DNA of 64,000 nt, taken from assembly GCF_044647545.1 (NCBI RefSeq), contig NZ_CP172818.1. The stretch is one strand, 5' to 3'. This stretch comes from Escherichia coli (GTDB taxonomy: Bacteria; Pseudomonadota; Gammaproteobacteria; Enterobacterales; Enterobacteriaceae). A program made the position numbers and the translations under genes. This document shows, piece after piece, positions 2,278 to 55,645 of the stretch. The stretch's first letter is position 1; every line of letters starts with the position of its first letter. The notes beneath the pieces are model-generated. The model made no database searches and was not told the origin of the DNA. It worked only from the letters and a program-made list of their open reading frames with translations.

Positions 2278-3267
2278 ATGGCTTCACAACTGACTGATGC
2301 ATTTGCGCGTAAGTTTTACTACTTGCGCCTGTCGATTACCGATGTGTGTAACTTTCGTTGCACCTACTGCCTGCCGGATGGCTACAAACCGAGCGGCGTC
2401 ACCAATAAAGGCTTTCTTACCGTCGATGAAATTCGCCGGGTTACGCGCGCCTTCGCCAGTCTTGGCACCGAAAAAGTCCGTCTGACGGGCGGTGAGCCAT
2501 CTTTACGCCGCGACTTTACCGATATCATCGCCGCTGTGCGAGAAAACGACGCTATCCGCCAGATTGCGGTCACCACCAATGGTTACCGTCTGGAACGCGA
2601 TGTGGCGAACTGGCGCGATGCTGGACTTACTGGCATCAACGTCAGCGTTGATAGCCTTGACGCTCGCCAGTTTCATGCCATTACCGGGCAGGATAAATTC
2701 AACCAGGTCATGGCAGGGATCGATGCTGCATTTGAGGCCGGTTTTGAGAAGGTCAAAGTCAATACCGTGCTGATGCGTGATGTTAATCATCATCAGCTCG
2801 ACACCTTTCTGAACTGGATCCAGCATCGCCCTATCCAGCTGCGTTTCATCGAATTGATGGAAACGGGCGAGGGCAGCGAGCTCTTCCGTAAGCATCACAT
2901 CTCTGGTCAGGTTCTGCGGGACGAGCTACTGCGTCGCGGCTGGATCCACCAATTACGTCAACGCAGCGACGGTCCCGCGCAAGTCTTTTGTCATCCGGAT
3001 TACGCCGGAGAGATTGGCCTTATCATGCCGTATGAAAAAGACTTCTGCGCCACTTGCAACCGCCTGCGCGTTTCCTCCATTGGTAAACTCCATCTCTGCC
3101 TGTTTGGTGAAGGCGGCGTTAACCTGCGCGATCTGCTGGAAGACGATACCCAGCAACAGGCGCTGGAAGCGCGTATTTCAGCGGCGCTGCGGGAGAAAAA
3201 ACAGACCCATTTCCTGCATCAAAACAACACCGGTATTACGCAAAACTTATCGTACATTGGTGGCTAA
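2278..3267 (+). CDS. moaA: GTP 3',8-cyclase (radical SAM), molybdopterin biosynthesis
   Basis: 329 aa from ATG at 2278; CxxxCxxC radical-SAM motif (CNFRCTYC). Confidence 0.95.
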
Positions 3268-3288
3268 AACGTCAAAAGGAGAGATCAG

Positions 3289-3801
3289 ATGAGTCAGGTA
3301 AGCACTGAATTTATCCCGACCCGTATTGCTATTCTTACGGTTTCTAATCGTCGCGGTGAAGAAGACGATACCTCCGGTCACTATCTGCGCGACTCGGCGC
3401 AAGAAGCGGGCCATCACGTTGTCGATAAAGCCATTGTGAAAGAAAACCGCTACGCTATTCGCGCTCAGGTATCTGCGTGGATCGCCAGCGACGATGTACA
3501 AGTGGTGTTGATTACGGGTGGTACTGGCCTGACGGAAGGAGATCAGGCTCCCGAAGCGCTGCTGCCGTTGTTCGACCGTGAAGTTGAAGGTTTTGGTGAA
3601 GTGTTCCGGATGTTGTCGTTCGAAGAGATTGGCACTTCCACGTTGCAATCTCGTGCGGTAGCGGGCGTCGCTAACAAAACGCTGATTTTCGCCATGCCGG
3701 GTTCGACCAAAGCGTGCCGTACCGCATGGGAAAATATCATTGCGCCGCAGCTGGATGCCCGTACGCGTCCGTGTAATTTCCATCCACATTTGAAGAAATA
3801 A
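3289..3801 (+). CDS. moaB: Molybdenum cofactor biosynthesis protein B
   Basis: 170 aa ORF, operon position after moaA. Confidence 0.95.
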
Positions 3802-3803
3802 GT

Positions 3804-4289
3804 ATGTCGCAACTGACCCATATCAACGCCGCTGGCGAAGCGCACATGGTGGATGTCTCCGCCAAAGCGGAAACCGTGCGTGAAGCGCGCGCCGAAGCCT
3901 TTGTCACCATGCGCAGCGAGACGCTGGCGATGATTATTGATGGTCGCCACCACAAAGGCGACGTATTTGCCACTGCGCGTATTGCCGGTATTCAGGCGGC
4001 AAAACGCACCTGGGATCTGATCCCGCTGTGTCACCCGCTGATGCTCAGCAAAGTTGAAGTCAATTTACAGGCTGAGCCGGAGCACAATCGGGTACGTATA
4101 GAAACCTTATGCCGCCTGACCGGGAAAACCGGTGTCGAAATGGAAGCATTAACCGCGGCCTCCGTGGCGGCGCTGACCATTTATGACATGTGCAAAGCGG
4201 TGCAAAAAGATATGGTGATTGGTCCGGTACGTTTGCTGGCAAAGAGCGGCGGCAAATCAGGTGACTTTAAGGTGGAAGCGGATGATTAA
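3804..4289 (+). CDS. moaC: Cyclic pyranopterin monophosphate synthase
   Basis: 161 aa ORF, expected length. Confidence 0.95.
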
Positions 4290-4527
4290 AGTTCTTTTTT
4301 TCGCCCAGGTGCGCGAGTTGGTGGGAACAGATGCAACCGAAGTAGCTGCGGATTTCCCAACCGTTGAAGCGTTACGCCAACATCTGGCTGCGCAGAGCGA
4401 TCGCTGGGCGCTGGCGCTGGAAGATGGCAAATTGCTGGCTGCTGTCAACCAGACGCTGGTGAGTTTTGACCATCCGCTGACTGACGGCGACGAAGTGGCT
4501 TTCTTCCCGCCGGTAACCGGAGGTTAA
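4282..4527 (+). CDS. moaD: Molybdopterin synthase sulfur-carrier subunit
   Basis: 81 aa from internal Met ([13 protein letters not shown]...), C-terminal GG; overlaps moaC end. Confidence 0.9.
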
Positions 4528-4528
4528 G

Positions 4529-4981
4529 ATGGCAGAAACCAAAATTGTTATCGGCCCGCAGCCGTTCAGCGTAGGAGAAGAGTATCCGTGGCTGGCGGAG
4601 CGTGATGAAGACGGTGCGGTAGTCACCTTTACCGGTAAGGTGCGCAACCATAACCTTGGCGACAGCGTCAAAGCATTAACCCTCGAACACTATCCGGGGA
4701 TGACTGAAAAAGCACTGGCAGAAATTGTCGATGAAGCGCGTAACCGCTGGCCGCTGGGGCGCGTCACGGTGATTCACCGCATCGGGGAATTATGGCCGGG
4801 CGATGAAATCGTTTTTGTCGGTGTCACCAGTGCGCATCGCAGCAGTGCGTTTGAAGCCGGGCAGTTTATTATGGATTATCTCAAAACCCGCGCACCGTTC
4901 TGGAAGCGCGAAGCCACGCCGGAAGGCGACCGCTGGGTCGAAGCTCGGGAGAGCGATCAGCAGGCGGCAAAACGCTGGTAG
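4529..4981 (+). CDS. moaE: Molybdopterin synthase catalytic subunit
   Basis: 150 aa ORF starting 2 nt after moaD stop. Confidence 0.95.
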   Translation: MAETKIVIGPQPFSVGEEYPWLAERDEDGAVVTFTGKVRNHNLGDSVKALTLEHYPGMTEKALAEIVDEARNRWPLGRVTVIHRIGELWPGDEIVFVGVTSAHRSSAFEAGQFIMDYLKTRAPFWKREATPEGDRWVEARESDQQAAKRW

Positions 4982-4991
4982 TTTTTTGTTA

Positions 4992-5019
4992 GCCGGATAA
5001 GGCACCGCTGCGTCCGGCA
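4992..5019. repeat. REP (repetitive extragenic palindromic) element after moaE
   Basis: gccggataaggcaccgctgcgtccggc, typical REP palindrome. Confidence 0.7.
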
Positions 5020-5117
5020 ATTTCACCGCTCAGTATATGCGTTTACGCTGCGTCGATGCACAGCCTCATCATTTTGCAGTATCCTTAAGATATTCCTTAT
5101 ATCTTCAGGAGATCGTC

Positions 5118-5822
5118 ATGGACAGATTCCCACGTTCTGATTCAATCGTACAAACCCGAACTGGCCTGCAAACCTATATGGCACAGGTCTATGGCTGGAT
5201 GACAGTAGGCTTGCTGCTTACTGCGTTTGTTGCCTGGTATGCGGCTAATTCCGCGGCCGTTATGGAGCTATTATTCACCAACCGCATCTTTTTAATTGGT
5301 CTGGTAATAGCACAATTAGCTCTGGTTATTGTGTTATCAGCGATGATTCAAAAGCTGAGCGCAGGTGTAACGACGATGCTCTTTATGCTTTATTCCGCGC
5401 TGACTGGCCTGACGCTTTCCAGTATTTTCATTGTCTATACCGCTGCTTCTATCGCCAGTACTTTCGTCGTTACTGCCGGGATGTTCGGCGCAATGAGCCT
5501 GTACGGTTACACCACGAAGCGCGATCTAAGTGGTTTCGGCAATATGCTGTTTATGGCGTTGATCGGCATTGTGCTGGCATCGCTGGTCAACTTCTGGCTG
5601 AAAAGCGAAGCGTTGATGTGGGCAGTCACATACATCGGCGTGATTGTCTTTGTCGGATTGACGGCGTATGACACCCAGAAACTGAAAAATATGGGTGAGC
5701 AGATTGATACCCGCGACACGTCGAACCTGCGCAAATATTCCATTCTTGGCGCGTTGACCTTGTATCTGGACTTCATCAACCTGTTCCTGATGTTGCTGCG
5801 GATCTTCGGCAACCGCCGTTAA
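5118..5822 (+). CDS. ybhL: BAX-inhibitor-1 (TMBIM) family inner membrane protein
   Basis: 234 aa from internal Met (MDRFPRSDS...); multi-pass hydrophobic protein. Confidence 0.9.
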   Translation: MDRFPRSDSIVQTRTGLQTYMAQVYGWMTVGLLLTAFVAWYAANSAAVMELLFTNRIFLIGLVIAQLALVIVLSAMIQKLSAGVTTMLFMLYSALTGLTLSSIFIVYTAASIASTFVVTAGMFGAMSLYGYTTKRDLSGFGNMLFMALIGIVLASLVNFWLKSEALMWAVTYIGVIVFVGLTAYDTQKLKNMGEQIDTRDTSNLRKYSILGALTLYLDFINLFLMLLRIFGNRR

Positions 5823-5841
5823 TTCTTTTTTCACCATCAAT

Positions 5842-5868
5842 ATCCCGGCCTGGTGCCGGGATTTTTTT
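5842..5868 (+). terminator. Rho-independent terminator of ybhL
   Basis: cccggc-ctggt-gccggg hairpin followed by a T7 run. Confidence 0.8.
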
Positions 5869-6028
5869 CTTACTAAAAACGACACTTAACAAGTACCAGG
5901 TATAAAATATGCCTTATGGCCGAGCGGAAGTGTTTTCTGTATCCATAAATGCAAAAGTATTTTGTATGCGTGGTTTTAAATTTATTGATGGTGAATATTA
6001 ATGTTTTTTTCTAAGGACAACAAAAAGA

Positions 6029-6742
6029 ATGGAATCATTCTCACAAAATAGCAATAAATTAGATTTTCAGCACGAAGCCAGGATATTAAACGGCATATGG
6101 CTCATTACCGCTTTGGGTTTGGTGGCAACCGCAGGGCTGGCCTGGGGCGCTAAGTATCTCGAAATTACGGCAACAAAATATGATTCACCGCAAATGTATA
6201 TTGCTATAGGATTATTATTACTTTGTATGTATGGCTTAAGTAAGGATATCAACAAGATAAATGCCGCCATCGCAGGCGTAATATATCTGTTTTTAATCTC
6301 TTTGGTGGCGATTGTCGTTGCGAGTTTAGCGCCTGTATCTGCCATTATCGTCGTGTTCAGCACTGCGGGATCGATGTTTTTAATCAGTATGCTGGCAGGT
6401 CTATTGTTTAAATTTGATCCTGGTTCTCACCGTTTTATCATTATGATGACGTTGGCAGGGTTGGCCCTGGTAATCATCGTGAATGCCACATTAATGAGTG
6501 AACGACCCATTTGGGTAATAAGTTGCTTAATGATTGTCTTATGGTCAGGCATTATCTCGCATGGACGAAATAAGCTCCTTGAATTGACAGGAAAAAGCCA
6601 TAGTGAAGAATTATGGAGTCCGGTTCGTTGTGCTTTTATAGGTGCATTAACACTCTATTACTATTTTATCGGCTTCTTTGGGATTCTTGCCGCTATAGCT
6701 ATAACGCTTGTCTGGCAAAGGCATACGCGGTTTTTTCATTAG
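6029..6742 (+). CDS. ybhM: BAX-inhibitor-1-like inner membrane protein
   Basis: 237 aa hydrophobic ORF. Confidence 0.85.
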   Translation: MESFSQNSNKLDFQHEARILNGIWLITALGLVATAGLAWGAKYLEITATKYDSPQMYIAIGLLLLCMYGLSKDINKINAAIAGVIYLFLISLVAIVVASLAPVSAIIVVFSTAGSMFLISMLAGLLFKFDPGSHRFIIMMTLAGLALVIIVNATLMSERPIWVISCLMIVLWSGIISHGRNKLLELTGKSHSEELWSPVRCAFIGALTLYYYFIGFFGILAAIAITLVWQRHTRFFH

Positions 6743-6777
6743 CCGTAAATGCACATACTAAAGAACTTAACTATACT

Positions 6778-7734
6778 TCACATCGCCGCTTCATTTTTCG
6801 CCCGCAGCTTCTTCGCCTGGCTTTCCAGTACCAGATAGCAAACCAGCGCCAGCAGCAGCGGGATAAAGTAATACAGCACACGGTAAGCGAGTAGGGCGGC
6901 GATAATTGTGCCCTTGGATGTATGCTCCCCAGCCAGTAGCGCGATAAACACCGCTTCCAGCACACCAATCCCCGCTGGAATATGCACGATGACGCCAGCA
7001 ATACTACTAACCAGTAACACGCCCAGTACAAAGAAATAGTTCACGCTTTGACCAAGTAACAGCCAGATAATCGCCCCCATTACCATCCAGTTAACACTGG
7101 AAATCAGCATTTGGGCGAGGGCGAATTTCCATGAAGGCAGCACCAGTTTTTGTCCTTTGATGGTCATATGGCGGTGCTTCGCGAAAGCGCAAAACCACAA
7201 ATAAACCGCGATAATCATCAGTAAGCCAATGCCGAGAATGCGCAGCGTGGTTTGATCGACATACCAGTGGTCCGGCAACTCCACCACGCCTGCGGTAAAG
7301 ATAACCCCCGCTAGCAAAATATAGCCTAGCCAGTTGGTGGTAATACTGAGCGAAAAAATCCGCGTAATAGTGCTGCCCGGTAACCCCAGTCGGGAGTACA
7401 AACGATAGCGCATACCAATGCCGCCGACCCAGGTACTGAGTGTCAGGTTGAAGGCGTAGCAGATAAACGACACCAGCATCACCTGGCGCTTCGCCAGTTT
7501 GTGACCGCAGTAGAAACGGGCGAGCAGGTCGTAGCAACCGTAAATCAGATAACTGACGACCACCAGCCCGACCGCACTAAGCAGCGCAACGCGATTGTAG
7601 TCGCGGATGACCTTCCAGACCTCTTCCCAGTCCACTTTTTTGGCGTAGACCACCAACAACACAATCACCGCGATAAAAAACAGCCAGGTGAGGAGTTTCT
7701 TTGCTAAGCGCCAGCGTGGGTGTGATTTACTCAT
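6778..7734 (-). CDS. ybhN: Inner membrane protein (lysylphosphatidylglycerol-synthase-like TM region family)
   Basis: 318 aa ORF; start shares one nucleotide with the clsB stop. Confidence 0.9.
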   Translation of the reverse strand: MSKSHPRWRLAKKLLTWLFFIAVIVLLVVYAKKVDWEEVWKVIRDYNRVALLSAVGLVVVSYLIYGCYDLLARFYCGHKLAKRQVMLVSFICYAFNLTLSTWVGGIGMRYRLYSRLGLPGSTITRIFSLSITTNWLGYILLAGVIFTAGVVELPDHWYVDQTTLRILGIGLLMIIAVYLWFCAFAKHRHMTIKGQKLVLPSWKFALAQMLISSVNWMVMGAIIWLLLGQSVNYFFVLGVLLVSSIAGVIVHIPAGIGVLEAVFIALLAGEHTSKGTIIAALLAYRVLYYFIPLLLALVCYLVLESQAKKLRAKNEAAM

Positions 7735-8975
7735 CAGGGTTTTACCCCCGTGTTTTCAGTTTCTACCCGATCCTGCGTTTCCATTGTCGGTTGTGCGGGG
7801 GGATCAACCTGCGCCAGACGTGGCGTGTGTGCCGGAAGCCAGCCAACCAGCGCCGGGAAGTGGCGTAAAAAGTGGAACGCCAGCACGCTTTTAGTCAGGT
7901 TCCACCAGGTGCGTTTGGGCAGCATGGTTTCATCCACCTGCTGACAATCTGCGGCGATGATGCCGTTCAGATTATCGCGCAGCGTCTGGTTAAAATGACG
8001 ATCGTGGATGATGACATTTGCTTCGAGATTCAGTGACAAACTGAGCGGATCGAGATTACTGGACCCTACTGTCGCCCAGTGATCGTCCATCAATGCTACT
8101 TTGCCGTGGAGCGGGCGGCGGCGGTACTCAAAAACCTGAACGCCGCCTTTAACCAGATAGTTATACAGCAAACGCGCACCGACTCTGACAATCGGCATAT
8201 CCGGTTCGCCCTGAATGATCAGTTTGATCCGCACCCCGCGCCGTGCCGCTTTACGCAAGGCGTGTAAAAATCGATAGCCGGGGAAGAAGTAGGCGTTGGC
8301 GATAATCACTTCTCGCCGCGCCTGAGTGAGCATTTTCAGATAGTGACGTTCAATATCATCGCGATGTTCTTCGTTATCGCGCCAGACCAGCAATACCTGC
8401 GCTTCTCCCGGCTGGCGGTTCTCTTCCGCTTTGTGATGACGTCGCCACCAGCGTCGTGCCGCGCTCTGTCCTGGCAGGTTTTCCAGTTCAAATTGCAGAA
8501 TATCTTCGACAATCGGCCCTTCAAGGCGCACCGCGTAATCCTGTTTAGCCTCTGGACCGTAGCTGGACATATGCTCGGCGGAGTAATTCAGCCCGCCAAT
8601 AAAGGCGATAAGCGCGTCGATCACCACAATTTTGCGATGCATCCGGCGAAACACATTGGTGCGCATACCAAAAAGGCGCGGGCGGGGATCGTAGTAGCGA
8701 AATACCACGCCAGCTGCCGTCAGTTCATTGACAAACTCATCGCTGAGATCCGGCGAACCGTAGCCATCCAGCAAGACTTCCGCTTTCACCCCGCGTTGCG
8801 CTGCTGCCAGTAGCGCCGCATGCAGCTGTTTGCCGACGTCATCCTCAAACCAGATAAACGTTTCAAGAATGATGCGTTCTTGCGCCTCGCCAATCGCCTT
8901 AAACACCGCGGGATAATATTGCTCGCCGTTTTCCAGCAACTGGATCTTATTGCCTTCGCGCCAGCTACATTTCAT
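7734..8975 (-). CDS. clsB: Cardiolipin synthase B (phospholipase D family)
   Basis: 413 aa ORF with HxK-type PLD motifs; overlaps ybhP. Confidence 0.95.
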
Positions 8976-9733
8976 AAATGAATCTCCGCACTTAAAGGGG
9001 CATGATCAGAAAGGTGTCGCCATGTCCGCAGCGGCAACGCGGTTGGCGCGCTGGCGCTGGCATTTTTGACGTAGATCCTGTCCAGTCGTAGTAGAGGAAA
9101 TTGCACCGGAAACGTGCGCGCCGGGCGTCCGTGGGCGCGGGTAAAAATCTCATCCAGTCCGGCCTGCACTTTTAACGGATGATTAGCTTTTTGCCGCCAG
9201 TCATTGAAATCACCCGCCACCAATACCGGTTCGCCGTCCGGTAGCTCATTCACCCATTCGGCGAGCATCGCAAGCTGCGCCTGACGGTGCGCCTCACGCA
9301 GGCCCAGATGTACGCACATCACATGAATCGCTTTCCCGGTCATCGGCGGCACAATGCGGCAGTAGAGCACGCCGCGCTTTTCCGCACCATCGACCGAAAC
9401 ATCACGATTCTCATAATGTTCAATGGGATAACGTGAAAGAACCGCATTACCGTGATGTCCTTCCGGGTATACGGCATTGCGACCGTAGGCGAAATCGCTC
9501 CACATGGTGTCGGCGAGAAACTCGTAGTGCGAGGTATCGGGCCAGTTTTCCACATGCAGCGGATGAACTTCGTGCGCGCCCATCACTTCCTGCAGGCAAA
9601 CAATATCGGCACTGACGGTACGCACGGCGTCGCGAAGTTCCGGCAAAATGAAGCGTCGGTTAAACGCGGTAAAGCCTTTGTGAATATTGATGGTGAGCAC
9701 CTTGAACGAAAATTGTTGTGTTTGATCGGGCAT
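8972..9733 (-). CDS. ybhP: Endonuclease/exonuclease/phosphatase family protein
   Basis: 253 aa ORF, first gene of the ybhP-clsB-ybhN operon. Confidence 0.9.
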
Positions 9734-23070: not shown

Positions 23071-23334
23071 AATTAATCTCTCGCAGGTGATTTTTGTATA
23101 AGTGACGTTGTTTCGTCGATGTGATGAGTATCACGTTTTTTTACGAGAGATAAAATCGAAGAGAATTGACCGCCTTGTTCAAATAAATTGATTGATATCT
23201 AACATACTGATAAACCATTTATTTGTTGTACTTATGGACTTGTTTTATACCGCGTGGCAGTCACGGTAGCGTTAAAGGCACGGAATGCCACGCAAAATAC
23301 AAATTATACTCGCTATACATCCCGCCAGTTGTAG

Positions 23335-30732: not shown

Positions 30733-30737
30733 CTGAG

Positions 30738-31460
30738 TTAAGAGACGTGCTGCAAAAATTCCTGCAAGCGCTGGCTCGGTGGGTTCTTGATCAACACCTG
30801 CGGATCGCCATCTTCCGCAATCCGGCCTTTGTCGATAAAGATCAGGCGCGAAGCTACTTTCTCGGCAAAACCGATTTCGTGTGTCACGATCACCATCGTC
30901 ATCCCTTCTTCAGCCAGATCCTGCATAACCTTCAGCACTTCATGGCGCAGTTCCGGGTCAAGAGCGGAAGTCGGTTCATCAAACAGCATCATTTTCGGCT
31001 TCACCGCCAGCGCGCGTGCGATCGCCACACGCTGCTGTTGACCACCAGAAAGTTCGGAAGGGTAGTGATGTGCACGTTCTGCCAGACCGACTTTCGCCAG
31101 CAGCTCACGCGCCAGTTTTTCCGCCTCTTCTTTGTTCGCGCCACGCACGCGTAGCGGACCAAACATGACGTTTTCCAGCGCCGTCAGATGCGGGAAGAGG
31201 TAAAACTGCTGGAACACCATACCTGCTTCCTGGCGAATCAGGCGCTCGTCAACTTTCGGATCGTTAACCTTCAGGCCATCGACAATCAGATCGCCGGAAG
31301 TGATTTCTTCCAGTTTGTTGATGCAGCGCAGCAGGGTCGATTTACCGGAACCGGACGGCCCGATAATCACCACGACTTCGCCCTGAGCAATGTTCAAATC
31401 GATATTGTGCAGCACCTGGGTTGGACCAAAATGCTTGGAGACGTTTTTAAATTCAATCAC
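30738..31460 (-). CDS. glnQ: Glutamine ABC transporter ATP-binding protein
   Basis: 240 aa with Walker [10 protein letters not shown]. Confidence 0.95.
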
Positions 31461-33404: not shown

Positions 33405-34081
<677 letters not shown>

Positions 34082-40959: not shown

Positions 40960-42552
40960 GTGTTAGTTTCCAGTAACGTCACCATGCAGTTCGGCAGTAA
41001 GCCGTTGTTTGAAAACATTTCCGTCAAGTTTGGCGGCGGCAACCGTTACGGCCTGATTGGCGCGAACGGTAGTGGTAAATCCACCTTTATGAAGATCCTC
41101 GGCGGCGACTTAGAGCCGACGCTGGGTAACGTTTCCCTCGATCCCAACGAGCGCATTGGTAAGCTGCGTCAGGATCAGTTTGCCTTTGAAGAGTTCACTG
41201 TGCTGGATACGGTGATCATGGGGCATAAAGAATTATGGGAAGTGAAGCAGGAGCGCGACCGCATCTATGCTTTGCCGGAAATGAGTGAGGAAGACGGCTA
41301 TAAAGTGGCCGATCTGGAAGTGAAATACGGCGAAATGGACGGTTACTCTGCGGAAGCTCGCGCCGGTGAACTGTTGCTTGGCGTGGGAATTCCAGTGGAA
41401 CAGCACTACGGCCCGATGAGTGAAGTTGCTCCTGGCTGGAAGCTGCGTGTGCTGCTGGCGCAGGCGCTGTTTGCTGATCCGGACATTCTCCTGCTCGACG
41501 AACCGACCAACAACCTCGACATCGACACCATTCGTTGGCTGGAACAGGTGCTGAACGAGCGTGACAGCACCATGATCATCATCTCGCACGACCGTCACTT
41601 CCTTAACATGGTTTGTACCCACATGGCGGATCTGGATTACGGCGAGCTGCGCGTTTATCCGGGCAACTACGATGAGTACATGACGGCGGCGACCCAGGCG
41701 CGTGAACGTCTGCTGGCTGATAACGCCAAGAAGAAGGCGCAGATTGCTGAGCTGCAATCTTTCGTTAGCCGCTTTAGCGCCAACGCCTCGAAATCTCGCC
41801 AGGCAACTTCGCGCGCGCGCCAGATTGATAAAATCAAACTGGAAGAGGTGAAAGCCTCCAGCCGTCAGAACCCGTTCATCCGTTTTGAACAGGATAAGAA
41901 ACTGTTCCGTAACGCGCTGGAAGTGGAAGGTCTGACCAAAGGGTTTGATAACGGTCCGCTGTTTAAAAATCTCAACCTGCTGCTGGAAGTCGGTGAAAAA
42001 CTGGCGGTACTGGGTACCAACGGCGTCGGTAAATCAACGCTGTTGAAAACGCTGGTGGGCGATCTGCAACCGGACAGCGGCACCGTAAAATGGTCTGAAA
42101 ACGCGCGCATTGGTTACTATGCTCAGGACCACGAATATGAGTTTGAAAATGATCTGACCGTGTTCGAATGGATGAGCCAGTGGAAGCAGGAAGGCGATGA
42201 CGAGCAGGCGGTACGCAGCATTCTCGGTCGTTTGCTGTTCAGCCAGGACGACATTAAAAAGCCAGCTAAAGTGCTTTCCGGTGGGGAAAAAGGGCGGATG
42301 CTGTTTGGTAAGTTAATGATGCAGAAGCCGAACATTCTGATCATGGACGAACCGACCAACCACCTGGATATGGAATCTATTGAGTCGCTGAACATGGCGC
42401 TGGAACTGTATCAGGGCACGCTGATCTTTGTTTCACACGACCGTGAGTTCGTAAGCTCCCTGGCGACCCGTATTCTGGAAATCACCCCGGAACGCGTGAT
42501 CGACTTTAGCGGTAATTACGAAGATTATCTGCGTAGTAAAGGGATCGAGTAA
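40960..42552 (+). CDS. ybiT: ABC-F family ATPase with two nucleotide-binding domains, no membrane domain
   Basis: 530 aa; Walker [10 protein letters not shown] and GTNGVGKST. Confidence 0.9.
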
Positions 42553-42637
42553 CTGTTGATCTCGTTTCCCAGATCCAGCAGCTGCTGAGGTTGTCATAAA
42601 ACAGGCCGAAGCTAAACGTCATTGCGGCGGGTGATGG

Positions 42638-43205
42638 CTAATGGAATGTGTTGTACAGCGGGTCAGTACTCACGGCGTTGTAGCCCATCGCGTCGAGGTT
42701 ACGCATCTCGTAACGTTTACCGTTGCGTTGCAGGTCGCCGGCTTTATCTCCGAGGCCATAAAAGCGTTCATCTTTACGACGGCTCTGATAGTGCGCCACA
42801 CCGTCACCGTGGGCATTCAGCAGATAAGCGCTGGTCGGTCGGTCATTCACTAACGGCAGCCATTTCGTCTTCGTTGTTACTATAGTGCCACTCCAGCCAC
42901 AGCGGCTGGTGAACGGTGGACCAGTGACTCGGTGGCGATAACCACGGCGTTGTTGTGCTGGTTCAGGTTCATGCGGGCAGGCCAGCCGCTGGACATTTTG
43001 CCGGCCGCGCCCTTCCCGATGGCACATCCTGCTGGAGCAATGCTCCAGGTGCGATCCAGCGCCAGCTCGCCTTTGCGTTTTAACAGCACGCGGAACAGAA
43101 TTCCAGCACGTACAGACGCAATACGCCCGCCATCGACCAGCAGTTCAACGTGGTGGGCAGACTGTTTGAGGTCCAGTTTTTCAGCGTTTCGACGTTGCAC
43201 ATCAC
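42638..43205 (-). pseudogene. Glycoside hydrolase family 31-like N-terminal fragment, frameshifted and 3'-truncated
   Basis: Two consecutive frames: ...HHVELLVDGGRIASVRAGILFRV...NQHNNAVVIATESL then ...RFYGLGDKAGDLQRNGKRYEMRNLDAMGYNAVSTDPLY-stop; same motif spacing as YicI ([23 protein letters not shown]); about 190 aa retained of an expected 700+. Confidence 0.55.
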
Positions 43206-43207
43206 TC

Positions 43208-44445
43208 TCAGGCGCGTTTTGCGCGACGTTCAGCAATAAAGGTGACCAGGAAGAAAGCGCCAATCAGGTCAAAGAAGCCCATGGCGATAAACAGGGCTTA
43301 AAGCCGATTTTGTCAGCAGTAACCCCGATAATCAGGGAGAAACAGGAAACTTGCTATCGACGCGGCAGAACCGCGCATGCCGTTACAGTGGCCATCTGAC
43401 CTTTGTCGAGGATTCCACTACTAATGCGCTAAGCATGCAGGAGATGATCTGGTCAACCGAAGCCGCCTATGGAAGATAAGGACGATGGCGATATGGGTTA
43501 TCCAGAAAGGCCATCACCGCCAGCGAAACCATCAGGAATGCGCCACTGACCGATCTATGCGCAATGGAGTTCACACTGACTCAGCCCAAACAGGCGGGTG
43601 TAAAGTTTGGTCAGATAGCCGCTGGCAATACTGCCAAGATCAGCGGCGAAGGAACGGCAACCAGGCGAAAGAGTGCGATCTGCTTCAGGTCGATGCCATA
43701 GGCATCTGGACAGGTATAGCGGAACCCAGAAACTCATCACCGCCCACGCCGGTTCTGCCATAAAGGCTGGGATAGTGATACCGTAAAAGCGTTTATTTTT
43801 GCCCACGGTTTTCAGTGCGGTCAGAAAGGGTAACTTGACCGGGGAGCTTCGTTATCCTGGCGGAGCAACCAGCTTGGCTTCGCTGAAGGTCAGGATGCTT
43901 ATCCGGGTTGCGATAAAACCCACCACAGCACCACCCACAGCATCGCCAGGATGCCAGTGGCATAAATGCGCCCTGCCAGCGAATGAAGCGTGGGCAAAAT
44001 AGATAATCGGTGGGGCCAGCATGGCACCGATGGAGTCTACGTCTGCCCAGCGGCGATCGGGCGTTGCGATTTTGGAAACCATTCACCTCATAGTTTTGGG
44101 GTTTGCCGGGGTGGCCGCGGCTTCCGCACCGCCCGATAAAGAAGCGCAACAGCGCCAGATGTACCCAGTTTCCCGCCCCCGCATGCATCAGACAGGCCAG
44201 CGCCCACAGCCCCTGTGCAGATCAGAAGCCCAGTTTGAGGCCAATGACGTCAATGAGCCACCGCATAACGGTTGAAATAGGGTATAGGCGAGTTGGAAAG
44301 CACCTACAATCCAGGAATATTGTTTTGTGCAATCCCCAGGCTGCTTTTCAACTCGGCGTACACCCAGCGAATTACGTGTGATGTAGTTGACAGTAACACC
44401 GAGCAAAAAAAGGACCAGCATCCACCAACGCAGATTTTTGAACAC
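43208..44445 (-). pseudogene. ExuT-like (anion:cation symporter family MFS) sugar-acid transporter, multiply frameshifted
   Basis: Fragments in at least four frames align in order along ExuT: N-terminus MFKNLRWWMLVLFLLGVTVNYITRN...KQYSWIVGAFQLAYTLFQP, then WRCCGWCCGGFYRNPDKHPDL, then KNKRFYGITIPAFMAEPAWAVMSFWVPLYL, then C-terminus IGVTADKIGFKP...FIAMGFFDLIGAFFLVTFIAERRAKRA. Confidence 0.7.
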
Positions 44446-44779
44446 CGGCGTGGTTTACTGGCAGTCATATCAATCGATACCCACTGATATGCACTCCACA
44501 GAATGGTATAGGGGGGCGGCAACGTCAGACGGAGTTGTCACACCACTTTTAACCTTTTGATAAATAAAGTCTTTATTGTCTGTTTTTCCATTGTTCTTGT
44601 ACTGGAAGTTGTTGTCACATTTTTACAGTAAGAGACACTAAAAGCGAAAAAGAAAGCGGGTTTTGTGCACGTTTTTCCATGCGGCCCATACATTACTGAA
44701 ATGGATTTAATGCCAGACAGAATGGGCTTTTTTTGCTCATGAAAATTCTGTCATTTCCGAATTAGAGGACATCAGAAAT

Positions 44780-45830
44780 CGGCAAAGAGCTTAAATTGCC
44801 GATATCGCCGCACGTACCGGATTATCGCCGATACGGTTTCGCGGGTGCTGCTGGCAAAGCGAATACCAGTGCACGCGCTCGCGAACAGGCGCTGGCCTGC
44901 GCGTGAGTTGGGCGCGATGGATGGCATGGCAGCAGGTCATGTTGCTGAATACAACTCATCATTTTGCGCCGCAACGCGCGTTTGACCAACGATCTGATAT
45001 CTTTTATTACCTGGTGTGATCCAGCATCAGCAAAGCGTTATCGCCCGCATGAAGTGCGGCTGCGTTACTGCGTGTTAAGGTAGTTCTACAGCTGATCCCT
45101 GGCGTGATCTGGCGGCATGAATGAAGCAGATACGCAGGCGGCGATCCTGCTGGGGATCGACGATCCGCACATCCATGATCTGGCCGCCGATCGCTAAGCC
45201 TTGCGCTGATCGACTGCTGGTGATGAACGAATGCGCCTCCCGACGATTGCGCCGGACCATCGGTTAATCGGCGTGTCTGCCGCCCGCTATCTGTTTGAAA
45301 TGGGTCACCGGGAGGTGATGAACGTTATGTGCCTGCGCTCGGCCACACTATGGAGCAGCGGTTTGCAGGGATCAAAGAATCATGGCGTCAGCATAATCTG
45401 GCCTTTCACCATGACCGTCATTTGCTGAATATCAGCAGTTTTCTCAGCGCTAAAGAAGCGGAAGAAGGTCGGAGCGCGGCCTGATGCCGCCAATGGCAAT
45501 ACGTTGCCGACGGCGTTTCTGGTCGGCGGGGATTTTTATGGCGGCGGGAACGGTAAATGCGCTACATCGTCGTGGTCTGCGCGTACCACAGGATGTCTCG
45601 GTGATGAGTATCGATGGTCTTCAATCTTGCGGCAATCGAGGATGTTCCCGACGGCTGTGACGTGCCACGCGATCAGCTAAGGGTTAAGTGGTGCAAATGT
45701 TGCAACAGCGGCTGATTCGCCGGATGTCTGCGGTGGGCTCGCTGCTGCTGCACGGACGATTAGCGGTGCGGACGCGCGGCGGTTGCCCAGGAAAAGGGAA
45801 CACCGCCGTGGAACGGGAAGGGCTGTACGA
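44780..45830 (+). pseudogene. LacI-family transcriptional regulator, multiply frameshifted
   Basis: N-terminal helix-turn-helix spread over three frames (IADIAARTGLSP / TVSRVL / GKANTSARAREQALACA); sugar-binding-domain fragments PDHRLIGVSAARYLFEMGHREV and ALHRRGLRVPQDVSVMSIDG; boundaries approximate. Confidence 0.65.
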
Positions 45831-45833
45831 CAA

Positions 45834-47102
45834 TCATTCCATTCCCAGCGCTCGCTTACCGTGAATGTTGAGGTCGGCAAGCGTAAAGCGTCCTTCCCAG
45901 TTTGTTTCATAGTCCTCGCGCGGGAAGTCGCCCGGCGATGCGCCTTTTTCCAGTGCGGCCTTCACCTTGTGCGCGTAGGCAAGATTTTTCTCGCACATCG
46001 GTGCCGCAGGAATGTACATCACGTTGCCCCAACCCTGTTGATTTTCAACGGGGGCAACGGAATGGATGACGTCGCAGTGCCACCAGACGGAGTCTCCGGC
46101 TTCGAGTTGTGGAATGCTGGTTAATGCCTCAATCAACAGTGGATGCCATTGCTCTGATACCGGCAACACTCTTCCGGGCGCTACGCCGCACAGTTCATCC
46201 TCCGGCACATCATCAAGCAGCGGACGTAACAGCACGTACGCCATGGCTTCAGGAATGGGCACGACGTGCAGCAGTCCCTGACCAGGCAGCATATCAGAGA
46301 GCGCTGTCCAGCCCTGGAATGTCCGAAACACGGAACATTTGGTGGTGTTGTCCACCGTGTACTCTTCAACTTCTGTACGATGTGCCGCATGCCAGGGATC
46401 ATATTGCGCCAGATTGCCATTAAAGACGTTGGCGAAAACGCGCTGATACGCTGGAAGCAGCCAGCGTTCCAGTGCCCCGGAGTCGGTATGCGCTCCGAGA
46501 CCTTTGGAGGCCGTTCCGGGCGGACGGCGGCGGATACGGTCAGGGTAGATGACGCTCACATCCGGGTTAAACCATTGCTTTCCATCACTTTCAAATGTCC
46601 ACAGACGATTGAGAAACGACTGCGCATTCGCCATTTCTTCACTCTGGCGGGCCTGCATTTGCGCCTGCGACCAGTAGATGGGGTAAATCTCGGGACGTGA
46701 AGCGCTGAGCGTCCCGAAGAAATTATCGCCGGGGCCTTTGTAGACCTCATCAAAGCGGTTGCGGTCCAGATAGTCCAGCATCGACTGATCCCAGCCTAGC
46801 GCTTGTTCGCGGGGGAAATGGCCTTTTATCACCGCACAACCGCGACGTTTAATCTGTTCGCGTTGCTCTGCAGTAACATGACCTGCTTTGATATCGGCAT
46901 AAGACAGCACCGGCCAGACTGCATCGCCCTGTGCTTTGAGTGCGTTGATTTCAGCCACTCGCGTGGCAATGTCATCGCTTAGCTGATTAAAGATCTGCTG
47001 GACGTCGCCAAGCTGCGCCCGCAGCGCGTGCTTCATCTGACGGATAGCTGCTTTGTGATCGGCAGGCAATGTGTTGCTGGTAAAAGTAGAAGCCATAACC
47101 AC
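45834..47102 (-). CDS. ybiU: DUF1479 family protein
   Basis: 422 aa intact ORF. Confidence 0.85.
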   Translation of the reverse strand: MVMASTFTSNTLPADHKAAIRQMKHALRAQLGDVQQIFNQLSDDIATRVAEINALKAQGDAVWPVLSYADIKAGHVTAEQREQIKRRGCAVIKGHFPREQALGWDQSMLDYLDRNRFDEVYKGPGDNFFGTLSASRPEIYPIYWSQAQMQARQSEEMANAQSFLNRLWTFESDGKQWFNPDVSVIYPDRIRRRPPGTASKGLGAHTDSGALERWLLPAYQRVFANVFNGNLAQYDPWHAAHRTEVEEYTVDNTTKCSVFRTFQGWTALSDMLPGQGLLHVVPIPEAMAYVLLRPLLDDVPEDELCGVAPGRVLPVSEQWHPLLIEALTSIPQLEAGDSVWWHCDVIHSVAPVENQQGWGNVMYIPAAPMCEKNLAYAHKVKAALEKGASPGDFPREDYETNWEGRFTLADLNIHGKRALGME

Positions 47103-47247
47103 CTCGCATTAACTTTCATTCGAAACTATGCTGATTTGCATGTGACAATATAAGTTATAAATAAGTTAATGCAAGTTTAATGATTTGATGTGATGTACAG
47201 GATGTAAAAAGAAGGGAAAACCGGAGCGCATGGCTCCGGTAGAGAGG

Positions 47248-48063
47248 TCAGCTGTTAAAAGGGGATCTGTTATCCAGCACAGCCTGAATCACGTTCAGCG
47301 CGCCTTCATGATTATTATCATCGGTAGCATAACGGGCGATTTGTTTAATGTTTTCCGCAGCATTGCCCATCGCAAAGGAATAACGCGCCATTTTCAGCAT
47401 CTCCGCATCGTTACCGCTGTCGCCAATCGCTACCACATTTTGCGGTGACAGATCCCAGCGTTTCAGTAACCGCGAAATACCGTTTGCTTTATGTAGACCG
47501 GGAATAATCAGGTCGATAAAGCCAAAACCACTGGTGACGGGTTTCATAATGCCATCCAGCGCTATGTGCAGTTTGTCGATCACTAACGGGATTTGTTCAT
47601 CCGGCAGGTTGAGCGAAAACTTGAACAGTACGTCGTCAATCTCCTGATAATCTTTTACAGGTTTCAGGCGATGGTAGTGTTTTGCCATCAGTGCGACGAA
47701 TGCTTCGGGGGCATTTTCGCTGACATATGCACTTTGCAGACCGCAAGCGACAAAATTGAGTTGCTTATCTTTTAGCAACTCGCCAATAACAATCCGCGAT
47801 TCATGTCGGGTCAGTTCGCCGTGGAACAACTGCTTGCCATGTTCGTAAACCAGTGCGCCGTTTTCCGCGACAAAAGAGATCTCATCCTTTAGCTCAGGAA
47901 AGAACGAAATAAGCTGGTAATACTGATTACCGCTGGCGACAACGAACTCAATGCCGCGCTTTTTCAGTTCCTGATATTGCGCCATAAAACGTGGTTGGTT
48001 GTACGTTTTGGCGTCGTTAAGAAAAGTACCGTCCATGTCTGTGACGATAACTTTTACGCTCAT
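47248..48063 (-). CDS. ybiV: HAD-superfamily (Cof-type) sugar phosphatase
   Basis: 271 aa; N-terminal DMDGT motif. Confidence 0.9.
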
Positions 48064-48208
48064 AGGTGTGCTCCTGGCTCGAAAATGAAACCGTAACAGT
48101 GTAATAACAATGTGACGCAGAGCACAAATTATATTTCGAATGAAAGCGAGGCTGAAATTGATGATGTGAATGATTTAGCCCGGCGACGACGACGCCGGGC
48201 TGAGGAGA

Positions 48209-50641
48209 TTACAGCATATGTTCAGTACGGGCGATGATATCGTCCTGAGCGTCTGGAGAGAGCGCGGTGAAGAAGGCGGAATAGCCCGCGACACGCACTA
48301 CCAGATCGCGGTACTGATCCGGATGTTTTTTCGCTTCCAGCAGCGTTTCGCGGGAAACGATGTTGTACTGAATATGCCAGCCTTTATGCACTTCAAAGAA
48401 GGTGCGTAGCAGGATCATCAGTTTCTGCTTGTCAGATTCGTTCTCCAGCGTTGCCGGATTCAGTTTCTGGTTGAGCAACACGCCGCCGAGAATCGCGGCC
48501 GTAGGCAGTTTACCCACCGAGCCAATGACCGCAGTAGGGCCAAGATGATCAGTACCGGAGGCCGGACTAGCTCCTTCTGCCAGCGGGGTATGCGCTTTAC
48601 GTCCGTCCGGCGTTGCCATCGTCTGCGCGCCAAAGGGTACGTTAGCGGAGATAGATGACGTACCCGCGTAATAATTGCCGCCAACCGGACCACGACCATA
48701 GCGCGGGTTATGGTACTGTTTTAGTTCGTCGATATAGGTCTGATAAGCGCGAGCCAGCAGCGTATCGACAGTATCATCGTCGTTGCCGTACTTAGGCGCA
48801 CCGTTAATCAGCCGCTGACGCAGCTGCTCGTGAGTCAGGCCGTCGAAGTCATCCGCCAGTGCGGCAGCCAGCTGTTGCTGACCAATCGCGCCCTGTTCAA
48901 ATACCAGTTTCTTCACTGCCGCCAGGCTGTTGCCGAGGTTAGCAATGCCGACCTGCAGGCCAGAAACCCAGTCATATTTCGCGCCGCCTTGCTTGATACT
49001 TTTCGCTCGCTCAATACAGTCATCCACCAGCGCCGAGCAGAGAATATCGTGTACGTTCTCTTCCAGCATGGTGTCGACGACATATTCGATTTCGATTGAT
49101 TTACGCGTGTAGTAACGGATTTGCGTATCCCATGCGTCCATTACTTCATCGAAGTTGTTGAAGTTACCCGCTGACAACGCTTTTTCTTGTGGCAGGAACA
49201 CTTTGCCGCTGGTGGCATCACGACCGCCTTCCAGCGCCGCCAGCATCACGCGGGCGAAGTTGATAAAGCTCATGCCGGTACAGCGATAGCCCCATTTGCC
49301 ACCGACGGCGGTTTCGATACAACCAATCGCTGCGTAGTCGTAAGCGTCCTGCGGTTCAATACCGAGTTTAATAAATTCCGGGATGACGATTTCATCGTTG
49401 TTGAACGCCGGCATCCCGAAACCACAGCGGATCACCTGAACACAGGCATCGAGGAAATCGTTACTCATACCCGCATGGTAACGCACGCTGAGGTTAGGCT
49501 GAGTCGAACGCAGGCGACCGCAGGATTCGAGGATCGCATAAGAGAGTGGATTTACCGCGTCCATCGGTTGACCATCAACCAGATTTTGCCCGCCAATGGT
49601 GACGTTCTGATACAGCGGACTTCCCGCAGAGGCTTTTGAGTGTGAGCCGGAGCGGATTTTGTTCACTTCCAGCAATTTCAACCAGCAGCTATGCAGCATC
49701 TCGATGGCGTGTTCGCGATCCAGTGTCTGGTTCAGTTCAACGTCACGGCGATAGTATGGATAGAGATACTGGTCCATACGACCAAAAGATACTGAGTGAC
49801 CGTTAGATTCGATCTGCAATATCAACTGGATGAAGTAACACAGTTGCAGCGCCTGCCAGAAAGTCTGCGGCGGTTGGTGGGCGATAAGATCGCAGTTTTC
49901 TGCCATCGCCAGCAGTTCATCGCGACGGCTTTCGCGGGTTTCGGTCGTGGCCATTTCACGCGCCAGGGCAGCGAAACGTTCAATGTGTTCACTGACTGCC
50001 ACCAGCACGATATCAATCGCTTTCAGGAATTGCTCGCCGTGCAGATCTTCCAGTACCGTCAGATTGATGCGCGAGCGACGTTCCGCCACTTTCTCACGCA
50101 GACCATCAAGCCCTTTTTCCAGCAGTAGCGGGAAATTCACCGCCAGGTGCGCATCGCCGGAGGTCATATTGCCCTCCGCTTTAATGATGCCGGTCGCCAG
50201 CAGACCTTTTTGCTCATCGGTAAACATGCCGTAGCAGCGATCCTGTACCGTCTGACCGCGCCACCACGGGCACACTTCATGCAGAACACGTTTGTTCTCC
50301 TCGCTCACCGCAAAACCAGCACCCGGACGATCTGCCAGATCATCAATCTCTTTTTCGATCCACGAGACGGTATATTCCGGGAAGATCGGCGCGGCGCGAA
50401 CCTCGCTTGCCTGGTTGCCGATGATCAACTCATCGTGCTTGATCCAGATGGTGCGATTCGCCAGGTGATGCGCCAGTGCCAGCGCGCGACGTACCGGGAT
50501 CGGCTTATCGAGATGTTGTTGATACATCTCGGTATAGTGCTGCGCGCGCTCGGTACAGACTGGTGGTTTCACAATATGCACCAGCGCATTTTTGTGCGCT
50601 TTAATGCGGTCGCTGAGCGTGTCCAGTTTCAGTGTGGTCAT
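48209..50641 (-). CDS. ybiW: Glycyl radical enzyme (pyruvate formate-lyase-like), substrate not established
   Basis: 810 aa; C-terminal glycyl-radical signature ...VVRVAGYSAFF. Confidence 0.9.
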   Translation of the reverse strand: MTTLKLDTLSDRIKAHKNALVHIVKPPVCTERAQHYTEMYQQHLDKPIPVRRALALAHHLANRTIWIKHDELIIGNQASEVRAAPIFPEYTVSWIEKEIDDLADRPGAGFAVSEENKRVLHEVCPWWRGQTVQDRCYGMFTDEQKGLLATGIIKAEGNMTSGDAHLAVNFPLLLEKGLDGLREKVAERRSRINLTVLEDLHGEQFLKAIDIVLVAVSEHIERFAALAREMATTETRESRRDELLAMAENCDLIAHQPPQTFWQALQLCYFIQLILQIESNGHSVSFGRMDQYLYPYYRRDVELNQTLDREHAIEMLHSCWLKLLEVNKIRSGSHSKASAGSPLYQNVTIGGQNLVDGQPMDAVNPLSYAILESCGRLRSTQPNLSVRYHAGMSNDFLDACVQVIRCGFGMPAFNNDEIVIPEFIKLGIEPQDAYDYAAIGCIETAVGGKWGYRCTGMSFINFARVMLAALEGGRDATSGKVFLPQEKALSAGNFNNFDEVMDAWDTQIRYYTRKSIEIEYVVDTMLEENVHDILCSALVDDCIERAKSIKQGGAKYDWVSGLQVGIANLGNSLAAVKKLVFEQGAIGQQQLAAALADDFDGLTHEQLRQRLINGAPKYGNDDDTVDTLLARAYQTYIDELKQYHNPRYGRGPVGGNYYAGTSSISANVPFGAQTMATPDGRKAHTPLAEGASPASGTDHLGPTAVIGSVGKLPTAAILGGVLLNQKLNPATLENESDKQKLMILLRTFFEVHKGWHIQYNIVSRETLLEAKKHPDQYRDLVVRVAGYSAFFTALSPDAQDDIIARTEHML

Positions 50642-50646
50642 GGTTG

Positions 50647-51573
50647 TTATCCTCGTAAGGTCGCGGTTAACCCTTTCTGGCAGGCGTACTGCTGGGCAAA
50701 GTCGAGCAGTTCTGGCGCATCAAGCGGTTTTTCCGGGGCGTCATAGGGCAGATTAAGTAAGTGATATTTGTTGATGCCCAGCGTGTGGTAGGGCAGAAAA
50801 TGAATTTCGCCAACGTGCAGCTCGTCGGCGGCAAAATCGGTAATGGCTTTTACAGAGGTTTCGTCGGCATTAAAGCCCTGAATCAGCGGTACGCGGATAA
50901 TGATTTTTTTGCCCGCTGAGGCGAGTTTTTTCAGGTTATCCAGCACTCTGGCGGCGTTACCGTCGGTCCACTGTTTAAACGGCGCGTCGGCAACGTGTTT
51001 TAAATCGGCAAGAAACAGATCGATATAGGGCAGAGAAGGGGCGATATATTTCCACGGCACATGCAGACAGGTTTCTACCGCAGTATGAATGCCAGCCTCG
51101 TGGCTGGCTTGCAGTAGCGCCATCGCCATTTCCGGCTGCATAAACGGTTCACCGCCAGAAAGCGTTAAGCCGCCGCCGCTGCGATCGTAAAACGGTTTAT
51201 CGCGCAGAACGGTCGCCATGATCTCCTCAACGCTTTTCACTTCACCACACACGGTTAACGCCTGTGTCGGGCAGCAGTCGGTTAGCGCCGTCAGATGCTC
51301 CGGGGTTAACTTTTCCCGATGAATAAGCAAACCATTCAACGCGCGCTCAATCACGTCCGGCGCGGCCTTAGCGCACAGCTCACAGCCTTCCAGGCACAGA
51401 CGTGGGTCATACAGCAGATCCTGCGTGCGGGCGCGGCTTTCCGGGTTCTGACACCAGCGGCAGCCCAGCGAACAGCCTTTAAGAAATACGACCGTGCGGA
51501 TACCGGGGCCATCATGGGTCGAGTAGCGCTGAATATTGAAAATCATAGTTGCCTCTCTGTTTCGTTCAAACAT
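50647..51573 (-). CDS. ybiY: Glycyl-radical-enzyme activating enzyme (radical SAM)
   Basis: ORF 50647..51573; radical-SAM CxxxCxxC motif (CSLGCRWC) plus additional Cys clusters; true start may be a downstream Met. Confidence 0.85.
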
Positions 51574-51676
51574 TAAAATACTTTCGAATGAAAGTTAGAT
51601 TGATGTGCGTCAACTGTTCAGAGAGTTTTCCCGTGATAGTCTACATTCAGACAAAAAGTACATTTTGAGGATGGTT

Positions 51677-52339
51677 ATGGAACTGTATCTGGATACTTCA
51701 GACGTTGTTGCGGTGAAGGCGCTGTCACGTATTTTTCCGCTGGCGGGTGTGACCACTAACCCAAGCATTATCGCCGCGGGTAAAAAACCGCTGGAGGTTG
51801 TGCTTCCGCAACTTCACGAGGCGATGGGCGGTCAGGGGCGTCTGTTTGCCCAGGTAATGGCTACCACTGCCGAAGGGATGGTGAATGACGCGCTTAAGCT
51901 GCGTTCTATTATTGCGGATATCGTGGTGAAAGTTCCGGTGACCGCCGAGGGGCTGGCAGCGATTAAGATGTTAAAAGCGGAAGGGATTCCGACGCTGGGA
52001 ACCGCGGTATATGGCGCAGCACAAGGGCTACTGTCGGCGCTGGCAGGTGCGGAATATGTTGCGCCTTACGTTAATCGTATTGATGCTCAGGGCGGTAGCG
52101 GTATTCAGACTGTGACCGACTTACACCAGTTATTGAAAATGCATGCGCCGCAGGCGAAAGTGTTAGCCGCGAGTTTCAAAACCCCGCGTCAGGCGCTGGA
52201 CTGCTTACTGGCAGGATGTGAATCAATTACTCTGCCACTGGATGTGGCACAACAGATGATTAGCTATCCGGCGGTTGATGCCGCTGTGGCGAAGTTTGAG
52301 CAGGACTGGCAGGGAGCGTTTGGCAGAACGTCGATTTAA
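51677..52339 (+). CDS. fsaA: Fructose-6-phosphate aldolase 1
   Basis: 220 aa from internal Met ([11 protein letters not shown]...). Confidence 0.9.
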
Positions 52340-52491
52340 CCGGACGTTCTGCATCCTCATCAATTGCTGATAACGTTGTGGAGTGCACCAAGCTTCCGCG
52401 CCTGAAATTCGCCCGAACTAGGCAGATAAGGTTACGCCGATTGGGTCTGAGAAAATTATCTGCCGCGACTTATCAGGCCTGGGGCTGGCAG

Positions 52492-54679: not shown

Positions 54680-55645
54680 ATGGGCAAAGCAGTCATTGCA
54701 ATTCATGGTGGCGCAGGTGCAATTAGCCGCGCGCAGATGAGTCTGCAACAGGAATTACGCTACATCGAGGCGCTGTCTGCCATTGTTGAAACCGGGCAGA
54801 AAATGCTGGAAGCGGGCGAAAGTGCGCTGAATGTGGTGACGGAAGCGGTGCGTCTGCTGGAAGAGTGTCCACTGTTTAACGCCGGAATTGGCGCTGTCTT
54901 TACGCGTGATGAAACCCATGAACTGGACGCCTGTGTGATGGATGGTAACACCCTGAAAGCCGGTGCGGTGGCGGGCGTTAGTCATCTGCGTAATCCGGTT
55001 CTTGCCGCCCGACTGGTGATGGAGCAAAGCCCGCATGTGATGATGATTGGCGAAGGGGCAGAAAATTTTGCGTTTGCTCATGGCATGGAGCGCGTCTCAC
55101 CGGAGATTTTCTCCACGCCTTTGCGTTATGAACAACTACTGGCAGCGCGCGAGGAAGGGGCAACAGTCCTCGACCATAGCGGTGCGCCACTGGATGAAAA
55201 ACAGAAAATGGGCACCGTGGGGGCCGTGGCGTTGGATTTAGACGGCAATCTGGCGGCAGCCACGTCCACGGGCGGAATGACCAATAAATTACCCGGACGA
55301 GTTGGCGATAGTCCCTTAGTGGGTGCCGGATGCTACGCCAATAACGCCAGTGTGGCAGTTTCTTGTACCGGCACGGGCGAAGTCTTCATCCGCGCGCTGG
55401 CGGCATATGACATCGCCGCGTTAATGGATTACGGCGGATTAAGTCTCGCGGAAGCCTGCGAGCGGGTAGTAATGGAAAAACTCCCTGCGCTTGGCGGTAG
55501 CGGTGGCTTAATCGCTATCGACCATGAAGGGAATGTCGCGCTACCGTTTAACACCGAAGGAATGTATCGCGCCTGGGGCTACGCAGGCGATACGCCAACC
55601 ACCGGTATCTACCGTGAAAAAGGGGACACCGTTGCCACACAGTGA
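54680..55645 (+). CDS. iaaA: Isoaspartyl dipeptidase / L-asparaginase (Ntn-hydrolase)
   Basis: 321 aa ORF. Confidence 0.9.

Follow-up and report, generated by a model that had tools for sequence, protein, structure and literature searches.

A scrambled LacI-family gene between ybiT and ybiU in an Escherichia coli genome record: probable artefact of record construction, not decay of a regulon

The DNA considered here (‘the window’, a stretch of 64,000 nucleotides) is a segment of the E. coli chromosome running from uvrB to dgcI, within which a regulator gene of the LacI family is found in pieces across three reading frames, beside a disrupted transporter gene and a truncated hydrolase gene. 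The original prediction saw in this arrangement the decay of a whole regulon unit. That reading is unsupported, and the pattern is the signature of record construction, not of evolution. As a pseudogene, the feature is most likely not real: the damage is very probably a technical artefact of some kind and, judged from the pattern of the sequence, there is a good chance that a K-12-like scaffold, devoid of the ‘island’ to which the gene belongs, was used to reconstruct or polish the record, with insertions being filled from error-rich sequence. The frameshifts in the LacI-family gene are most probably sequence errors, and the genes of the island are probably intact in the organism itself.

Anatomy of the scrambled segment

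Between the end of ybiT (at 42552) and the convergent gene ybiU lie 3.28 kb, which together with their two boundaries are organized as follows.

42549 to 42553, plus strand: left junction, at which ybiT ends GAG TAA (...GIE*) as in K-12; the nearest relatives have GAC GGT TAA (...GIDG*)
42554 to 43193, minus strand: remnant of a GH31 glycosidase gene, with about 660 nt of the 5' end kept, of 2364 nt
43208 to 44488, minus strand: MFS transporter equivalent, a noisy counterpart of a 1302-nt gene
44489 to 44777, no strand: divergent intergenic region between the MFS and LacI equivalents (292 nt in intact strains), with a noise level equal to that of the genes
44778 to 45864, plus strand: LacI-family regulator equivalent, a noisy counterpart of a 1104-nt gene, with its last difference from the reference at 45840
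45834 to 47096, minus strand: ybiU (DUF1479), the same as in relatives save for its last codons

When an intact, 367-residue orthologue was compared by tblastn with positions 44700 to 45900 of the window, all three forward frames were matched (with E values of 4e-65, 1e-40, 1e-26 and 6e-17), and the similarity to the LacI family is therefore far above chance. The helix-turn-helix, which had been described as recognisable only by stitching three frames together, is indeed distributed in that manner: the frames of positions 44780, 44779 and 44778 hold IADIAARTGLSP, TVSRVL and AGKANTSARAREQALACA, respectively, and the third piece in the tblastn alignment, following TVSRVL, reads AGKANTSARAREQ in a frame of its own. 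The fragments GHREV and RRGLRVPQDVSVMSIDG, which had also been reported as out of frame, are both present, in differing frames. The limits first given for the gene (44780 to 45830) are slightly too narrow, the true extent being 44778 to 45864. Across that extent the DNA is 92% identical to the intact gene, from which it departs by 45 substitutions, 35 deleted nucleotides and 18 inserted nucleotides; the start codon is gone (ATGGAC has become ATCGGC), there are more than 30 changes of frame, and each frame holds 9 to 14 stop codons, in a gene whose reading frame is intact in relatives. Unlike the regulators of the LacI/GalR family, the copy in the window is, as written, unable to encode a protein.

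The adjoining genes had been called dead as well, and a disrupted MFS gene (43 substitutions, 34 deleted nucleotides and 13 inserted nucleotides) and a truncated GH31 gene do lie beside the regulator. The further step, from three damaged neighbors to a decaying regulon, is the part of the claim that did not hold: the density of the lesions, the allele in which they occur, their strand asymmetry and their coincidence with the structure of K-12 (all described below) leave it unsupported.

The same segment is found undamaged elsewhere. Its best match by megablast, at 92.2% identity over its full length, is to loci carrying GH31, MFS and LacI genes; matches at 90-92% identity are present in 577 of 5426 complete E. 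coli genomes, always on the chromosome, and the annotation in the matches listed is that of a GH31 glycoside hydrolase (or TIM-barrel protein), an MFS transporter and a LacI family DNA-binding transcriptional regulator. Whether any other strain possesses an intact copy is answered by those 577 genomes, which carry the intact island in the following form.

Minus strand, 2364 nt: GH31 gene
Minus strand, 1302 nt: MFS gene
Divergent spacer, 292 nt: MFS-LacI intergenic region
Plus strand, 1104 nt (367 residues): LacI-family gene

The position and gene order in the window are the same as in the intact islands of FDAARGOS_497, WWCOL-236 and WCHEC000837, and the allele is that of the window's nearest relatives. 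The window copy differs from those islands in lacking 1.9 kb (reference positions 42899 to about 44786, such that the sequence downstream of the ybiT junction jumps to the middle of the GH31 gene), in being about 8% different at the positions that remain, and in the alteration of both flanking gene ends.

Those gene ends are informative. In intact strains the LacI-family gene overlaps the convergent ybiU by 34 nt at its 3' end (7057-8160 versus 8127-9392 in the FDAARGOS_497 locus), so that the last codons of ybiU are supplied by the island, as are the last codons of ybiT (GIDG* versus GIE*). The proposal that the regulator abuts or overlaps the ybiU stop was correct, with that stop being at 45834-45836. 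On the left, the 100% match to FDAARGOS_497 and WWCOL-236 stops at window position 42548, and the YbiT protein of the window is exactly that of YBIT_ECOLI. On the right, where the edge of the noisy segment falls inside the final three codons of ybiU, the protein ends ...LGME* in the window, ...LGIDS* in relatives and ...LGMDV* in K-12, which means that neither state is matched; the ybiU tail in the window has the CAT of K-12, where relatives have GAT.

Contrast with the flanks and origin of the allele

Over about 60 kb, the flanks are essentially identical to a group of intact-island strains, among them FDAARGOS_497, IMT16316, MS6198 and WWCOL-236, which we take to be members of ST648 and phylogroup F. 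With FDAARGOS_497 as the reference for the comparison, the window is divided as follows.

1 to 42548 (42.5 kb): 9 differing positions
42554 to 45840 (3.29 kb): 127 substitutions, 62 deletion runs and 36 insertion runs, plus 1.9 kb missing
45841 to 52394 (6.5 kb): zero differences

The middle interval contains approximately 270 differences, or about 8%, at a density some 140-fold that of the flanks and with edges that are sharp to within a few bases. The divergence of an evolutionary pseudogene would be commensurate with that of the genome surrounding it; here, the roughly 270 differences in 3.29 kb contrast with a left flank of 42.5 kb that has 9 differing positions and a right flank of 6.5 kb that has none.

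A genuine pseudogenisation, in which the regulator, transporter and hydrolase either decayed in place or were imported from a long-decayed lineage, would account for several of these features: three of three genes are disrupted, deletions outnumber insertions, the damage extends no further than the stop codons of two conserved core genes (a boundary that selection would predict), and the small indels of the flanks are mostly intergenic. We nevertheless regard it as very improbable. A single SNP is the only synonymous change in the 60 kb of flanks, against approximately 4% substitutions in the island. At the 67 sites that are polymorphic between the two natural alleles of the island, the window has the state of its relatives' allele at 62, of the other allele at 2 and of neither at 3, so that the noisy copy derives from the relatives' own allele; an old imported pseudogene would not nest within the allele of its recipient. 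For a copy nested in this way the branches are grossly unequal (about 181 substitutions private to the window, against about 3 on the branch of the relatives), and relaxed selection would generate an asymmetry of only a few-fold, not the roughly 60-fold that is seen.

The distribution of the differences is equally difficult to reconcile with decay. Per 100 nt, they number 7.9 in the GH31 remnant, 6.9 in the MFS gene, 8.6 in the spacer and 8.9 in the LacI gene, and the density is thus equal in coding and non-coding parts; other spacers that possess K-12 counterparts are free of noise. Changes between C and T on the plus strand exceed those between A and G by 60 to 15 (p = 2e-8), and by 32 to 3 among isolated substitutions. 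This asymmetry is a single-strand signature; its sign is the same over genes that lie on opposite strands, and a 4:1 strand asymmetry that is independent of gene orientation is not what pseudogenisation would leave.

Several further routes to a divergent copy were considered and set aside. The import by recombination of a divergent natural allele is contradicted by the 62:2 grouping with the relatives' allele, and no closer allele exists in the 5426 genomes. Decay in a mismatch-repair mutator does not agree with a fraction of transversions that reaches 41% of substitutions, or with flanks that are clean. Transcription-coupled or deaminase-type mutagenesis does not agree with an asymmetry whose sign is unaffected by the strand of the gene, and leaves the dense indels unaccounted for.

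The altered states are also confined to this record. No island more than 95% identical to the window copy was found in any of the 577 island-bearing genomes among the 5426 complete E. coli genomes, and the lesions of the window are present in none of those 5426. The sharing of lesions by independent related genomes, which is expected of a pseudogene, was accordingly not seen among the 577 that bear the island. An exact look-up among about 15 billion proteins placed the altered, 420-residue YbiU (WP_400165218.1) on a single NCBI contig. Of eight ORF products from the noisy segment, seven are missing from that collection of about 15 billion proteins and one (129 residues, from the GH31 remnant) is likewise on one NCBI contig. 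An alteration of the sequence during preparation of the window was rejected, because the altered YbiU and the ORF of the GH31 remnant were already public, on one NCBI contig.

A separate observation concerns dps, a core gene on the minus strand, in which a run of six As (T6 on the plus strand) is reduced to five at window position 33827, with a resulting frameshift at about codon 27; the run is full in both K-12 and the nearest relatives. This loss is probably a homopolymer sequencing error, by which the record is seen to carry indel errors of the long-read type.

Coincidence of the defects with structural differences from K-12

Homology between K-12 MG1655 and the relatives is broken at five places within the window, and each of them coincides with a defect in the window.

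Reference 1289-1292, extra sequence in K-12: 2-nt loss at window position 942
Reference 23129-23144, extra sequence in K-12: 1-nt loss at window position 22798
Reference 31078-31087, extra sequence in K-12: 3-nt loss at window position 30735
Reference 42898-48134, island missing from K-12: the noisy, truncated island of the window
Reference 54682-54782, 100-nt REP-containing segment missing from K-12: a second noisy patch, at window positions 52395-52460

At the first three junctions K-12 is longer than the window's relatives by 74 to about 150 nt, and not one of the 5426 complete E. coli genomes shares the states seen at 22798 and 30735. The second noisy patch lies in the spacer between fsa and moeB, and consists of 25 deleted bases (nearly all of them G or C) and one substitution. 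In DNA that is homologous between K-12 and the relatives, the window agrees with the relatives at all 1452 SNPs and departs from them at only one of 13 small indels, a run of Ts at window position 5861, in the spacer between ybhL and ybhM, which has seven Ts (the K-12 state) where the nearest relatives have eight. The defects of the window are therefore located on structural differences from K-12 while its point differences are right, which is the behavior expected of a reference-guided artefact. So too is the persistence of scaffold-state bases at breakpoints, and K-12-state bases are present at the defects in the form of GAGTAA (the end of ybiT), CAT (the tail of ybiU) and T7 (at 5861). The spacer between ybiT and ybiU of K-12 was also considered as a possible remnant of the island and was rejected as such, being REP-type sequence with a short junction similarity that is compatible with chance.

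The same coincidence bears upon the possibility that a real, localised hypermutation took place in the living strain, whether by a natural process or by a laboratory system for targeted mutagenesis. Such an event would explain a sharply bounded segment with very dense and strand-biased changes. It would not explain why similar damage is found in the 100-nt REP insertion, at a distance of 6.5 kb, or at the three deletion junctions; moreover, the only property that the damaged sites share is a structural difference from K-12, which is a bioinformatic and not a biological property. We know of no bacterial process by which 3.3 kb would acquire mixed substitutions and 1-2-nt indels at a level of 8%, and the chance that hypermutation is responsible seems slight. 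Little more than a conjecture, and again quite implausible, is a process that would hypermutate (at about 8%, with strand bias and dense small indels) exactly the DNA that is accessory relative to most E. coli, while sparing the core.

Construction of the record

As a way to account for all of these features together, we suggest that a scaffold of K-12-like structure, from which the island was absent, served as the basis for building or polishing the genome record. Sequence with a counterpart in the scaffold would have been corrected to the true sequence of the strain, and segments for which there was no such counterpart would have been filled only in part, from error-rich and probably single-read or poorly supported long-read sequence. 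Such a process would yield an incomplete island with an error rate of about 8%, and would be the source of the scrambling of the LacI gene, of the ‘dead’ transporter and of the shortened hydrolase. Genomes built as a reference-guided consensus have a known class of assembly artefact, in which insertions are rich in errors and breakpoints are imprecise. The window resembles that class in having defects confined to structural differences from the scaffold, reference-state bases at breakpoints, and SNPs and small indels that are otherwise perfect; the genome is, in addition, smaller (a contig of 4.50 Mb, or 4,499,902 bp) than the records of the listed relatives (4.7-5.3 Mb). It differs from the class in its breakpoint sequences, which are not simple deletions relative to the reference.

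That last point is one of several that count against a K-12-like scaffold. Simple K-12 deletions would not account for the three deletion junctions, which include relatives-like bases beyond the K-12 breakpoints; the pipeline was therefore not a naive variant-to-reference consensus. The REP patch consists almost entirely of deletions of G or C, whereas the errors in the island are mixed, and one error process is not obviously the source of both. Errors were not enriched beside identical neighboring bases, where a neighbor might have been copied, and so do not name a sequencing platform. Four of the five small indels in the left flank are intergenic, which would fit selection too, and a record with such patches was still given RefSeq protein accessions.

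A technical origin need not involve a reference at all. A de novo long-read or hybrid assembly might retain raw-read accuracy in local patches where coverage was very low or polishing had failed, such as a bridge formed by a single read. The level and mixture of errors in the island (about 3.9% mismatch, 3.0% deletion and 1.25% insertion) are like those of raw long reads, as is the strand asymmetry, and homopolymer indels are present in the flanks and in dps. Unguided assembly would leave unexplained both the placement of five defects exactly on structural differences from K-12 and the K-12-state bases at their edges; the island, furthermore, is single-copy, which gives no reason for polishing to have failed there. 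We consider this explanation unlikely, albeit less so than either biological one, and favor construction on a K-12-like scaffold.

Consequences for the use of the record

Taken as biology, the scrambled regulator carries little weight: nothing here shows a regulon dying. Caution is called for in the use of the record, from which pseudogene or ‘decaying operon’ calls will be artefacts, and so, probably, will be every island in it that is missing from K-12-like genomes. The apparent reduction of the genome, to a contig of 4.50 Mb, may be artefactual as well. A simple test is available for records of this type, in which the sites that differ from the nearest relatives are compared with the structural differences of those relatives from a common reference.

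The intact island

The island that contains the LacI-family gene is already known, although uncharacterised, and hundreds of E. coli genomes have it intact. It is an accessory island, in which the GH31 and MFS genes form one minus-strand operon with a divergent LacI-family repressor, and is carried by about one in ten E. coli. The intact regulator displays a LacI helix-turn-helix (PF00356) at residues 7-47 (E = 6.4e-8), with Peripla_BP_3 (PF13377) at residues 172-337 (E = 1.7e-27) and Peripla_BP_1 (PF00532) at residues 73-314 (E = 1.4e-15), as identified with Pfam. It therefore shares with the LacI/GalR family (RbsR, CytR, PurR, GalR) an N-terminal helix-turn-helix and an effector domain that is like a periplasmic binding protein, and it likewise adjoins a transporter/hydrolase operon in a divergent arrangement. 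It falls into none of the characterised subfamilies, reaching no curated NCBIfam subfamily (RbsR 113, CytR 98 and PurR 94 bits, against cut-offs of 382-501 bits). The intact MFS protein resembles the D-galactonate-transporter (ACS) subfamily TIGR00893, and the intact GH31 protein resembles the alpha-glucosidase MalA and alpha-xylosidase, in each case below the NCBIfam cut-offs.

From its family and from the arrangement of the genes, the most likely role of the regulator in intact strains is to bind the 292-nt spacer and repress the divergent MFS-GH31 operon, with its release probably being brought about by a sugar or glycoside related to the substrate of the hydrolase. With its GH31 hydrolase and anion:cation-symporter-like MFS under a LacI-type regulator, the intact island represents a reasonable small target for functional work. 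An enzyme of the alpha-glucosidase/alpha-xylosidase-like type is here paired with an MFS of the anion:cation-symporter type, not with a symporter of the glycoside type (FDAARGOS_497 locus, 3085-6764), a pairing that hints at an acidic glycoside as the substrate.

In the spacer between the MFS and LacI genes, no operator of the even length and central CG typical of the LacI/GalR family was found, and a repeat finder returned no inverted repeat. The sole candidate from a custom scan is a perfect, AT-rich palindrome of 15 nt (7+1+7) at window positions 44563-44577, AATAAAGTCTTTATT, which could be an operator, albeit one atypical of the LacI family, or some other site. The two natural alleles of the island both retain that palindrome.
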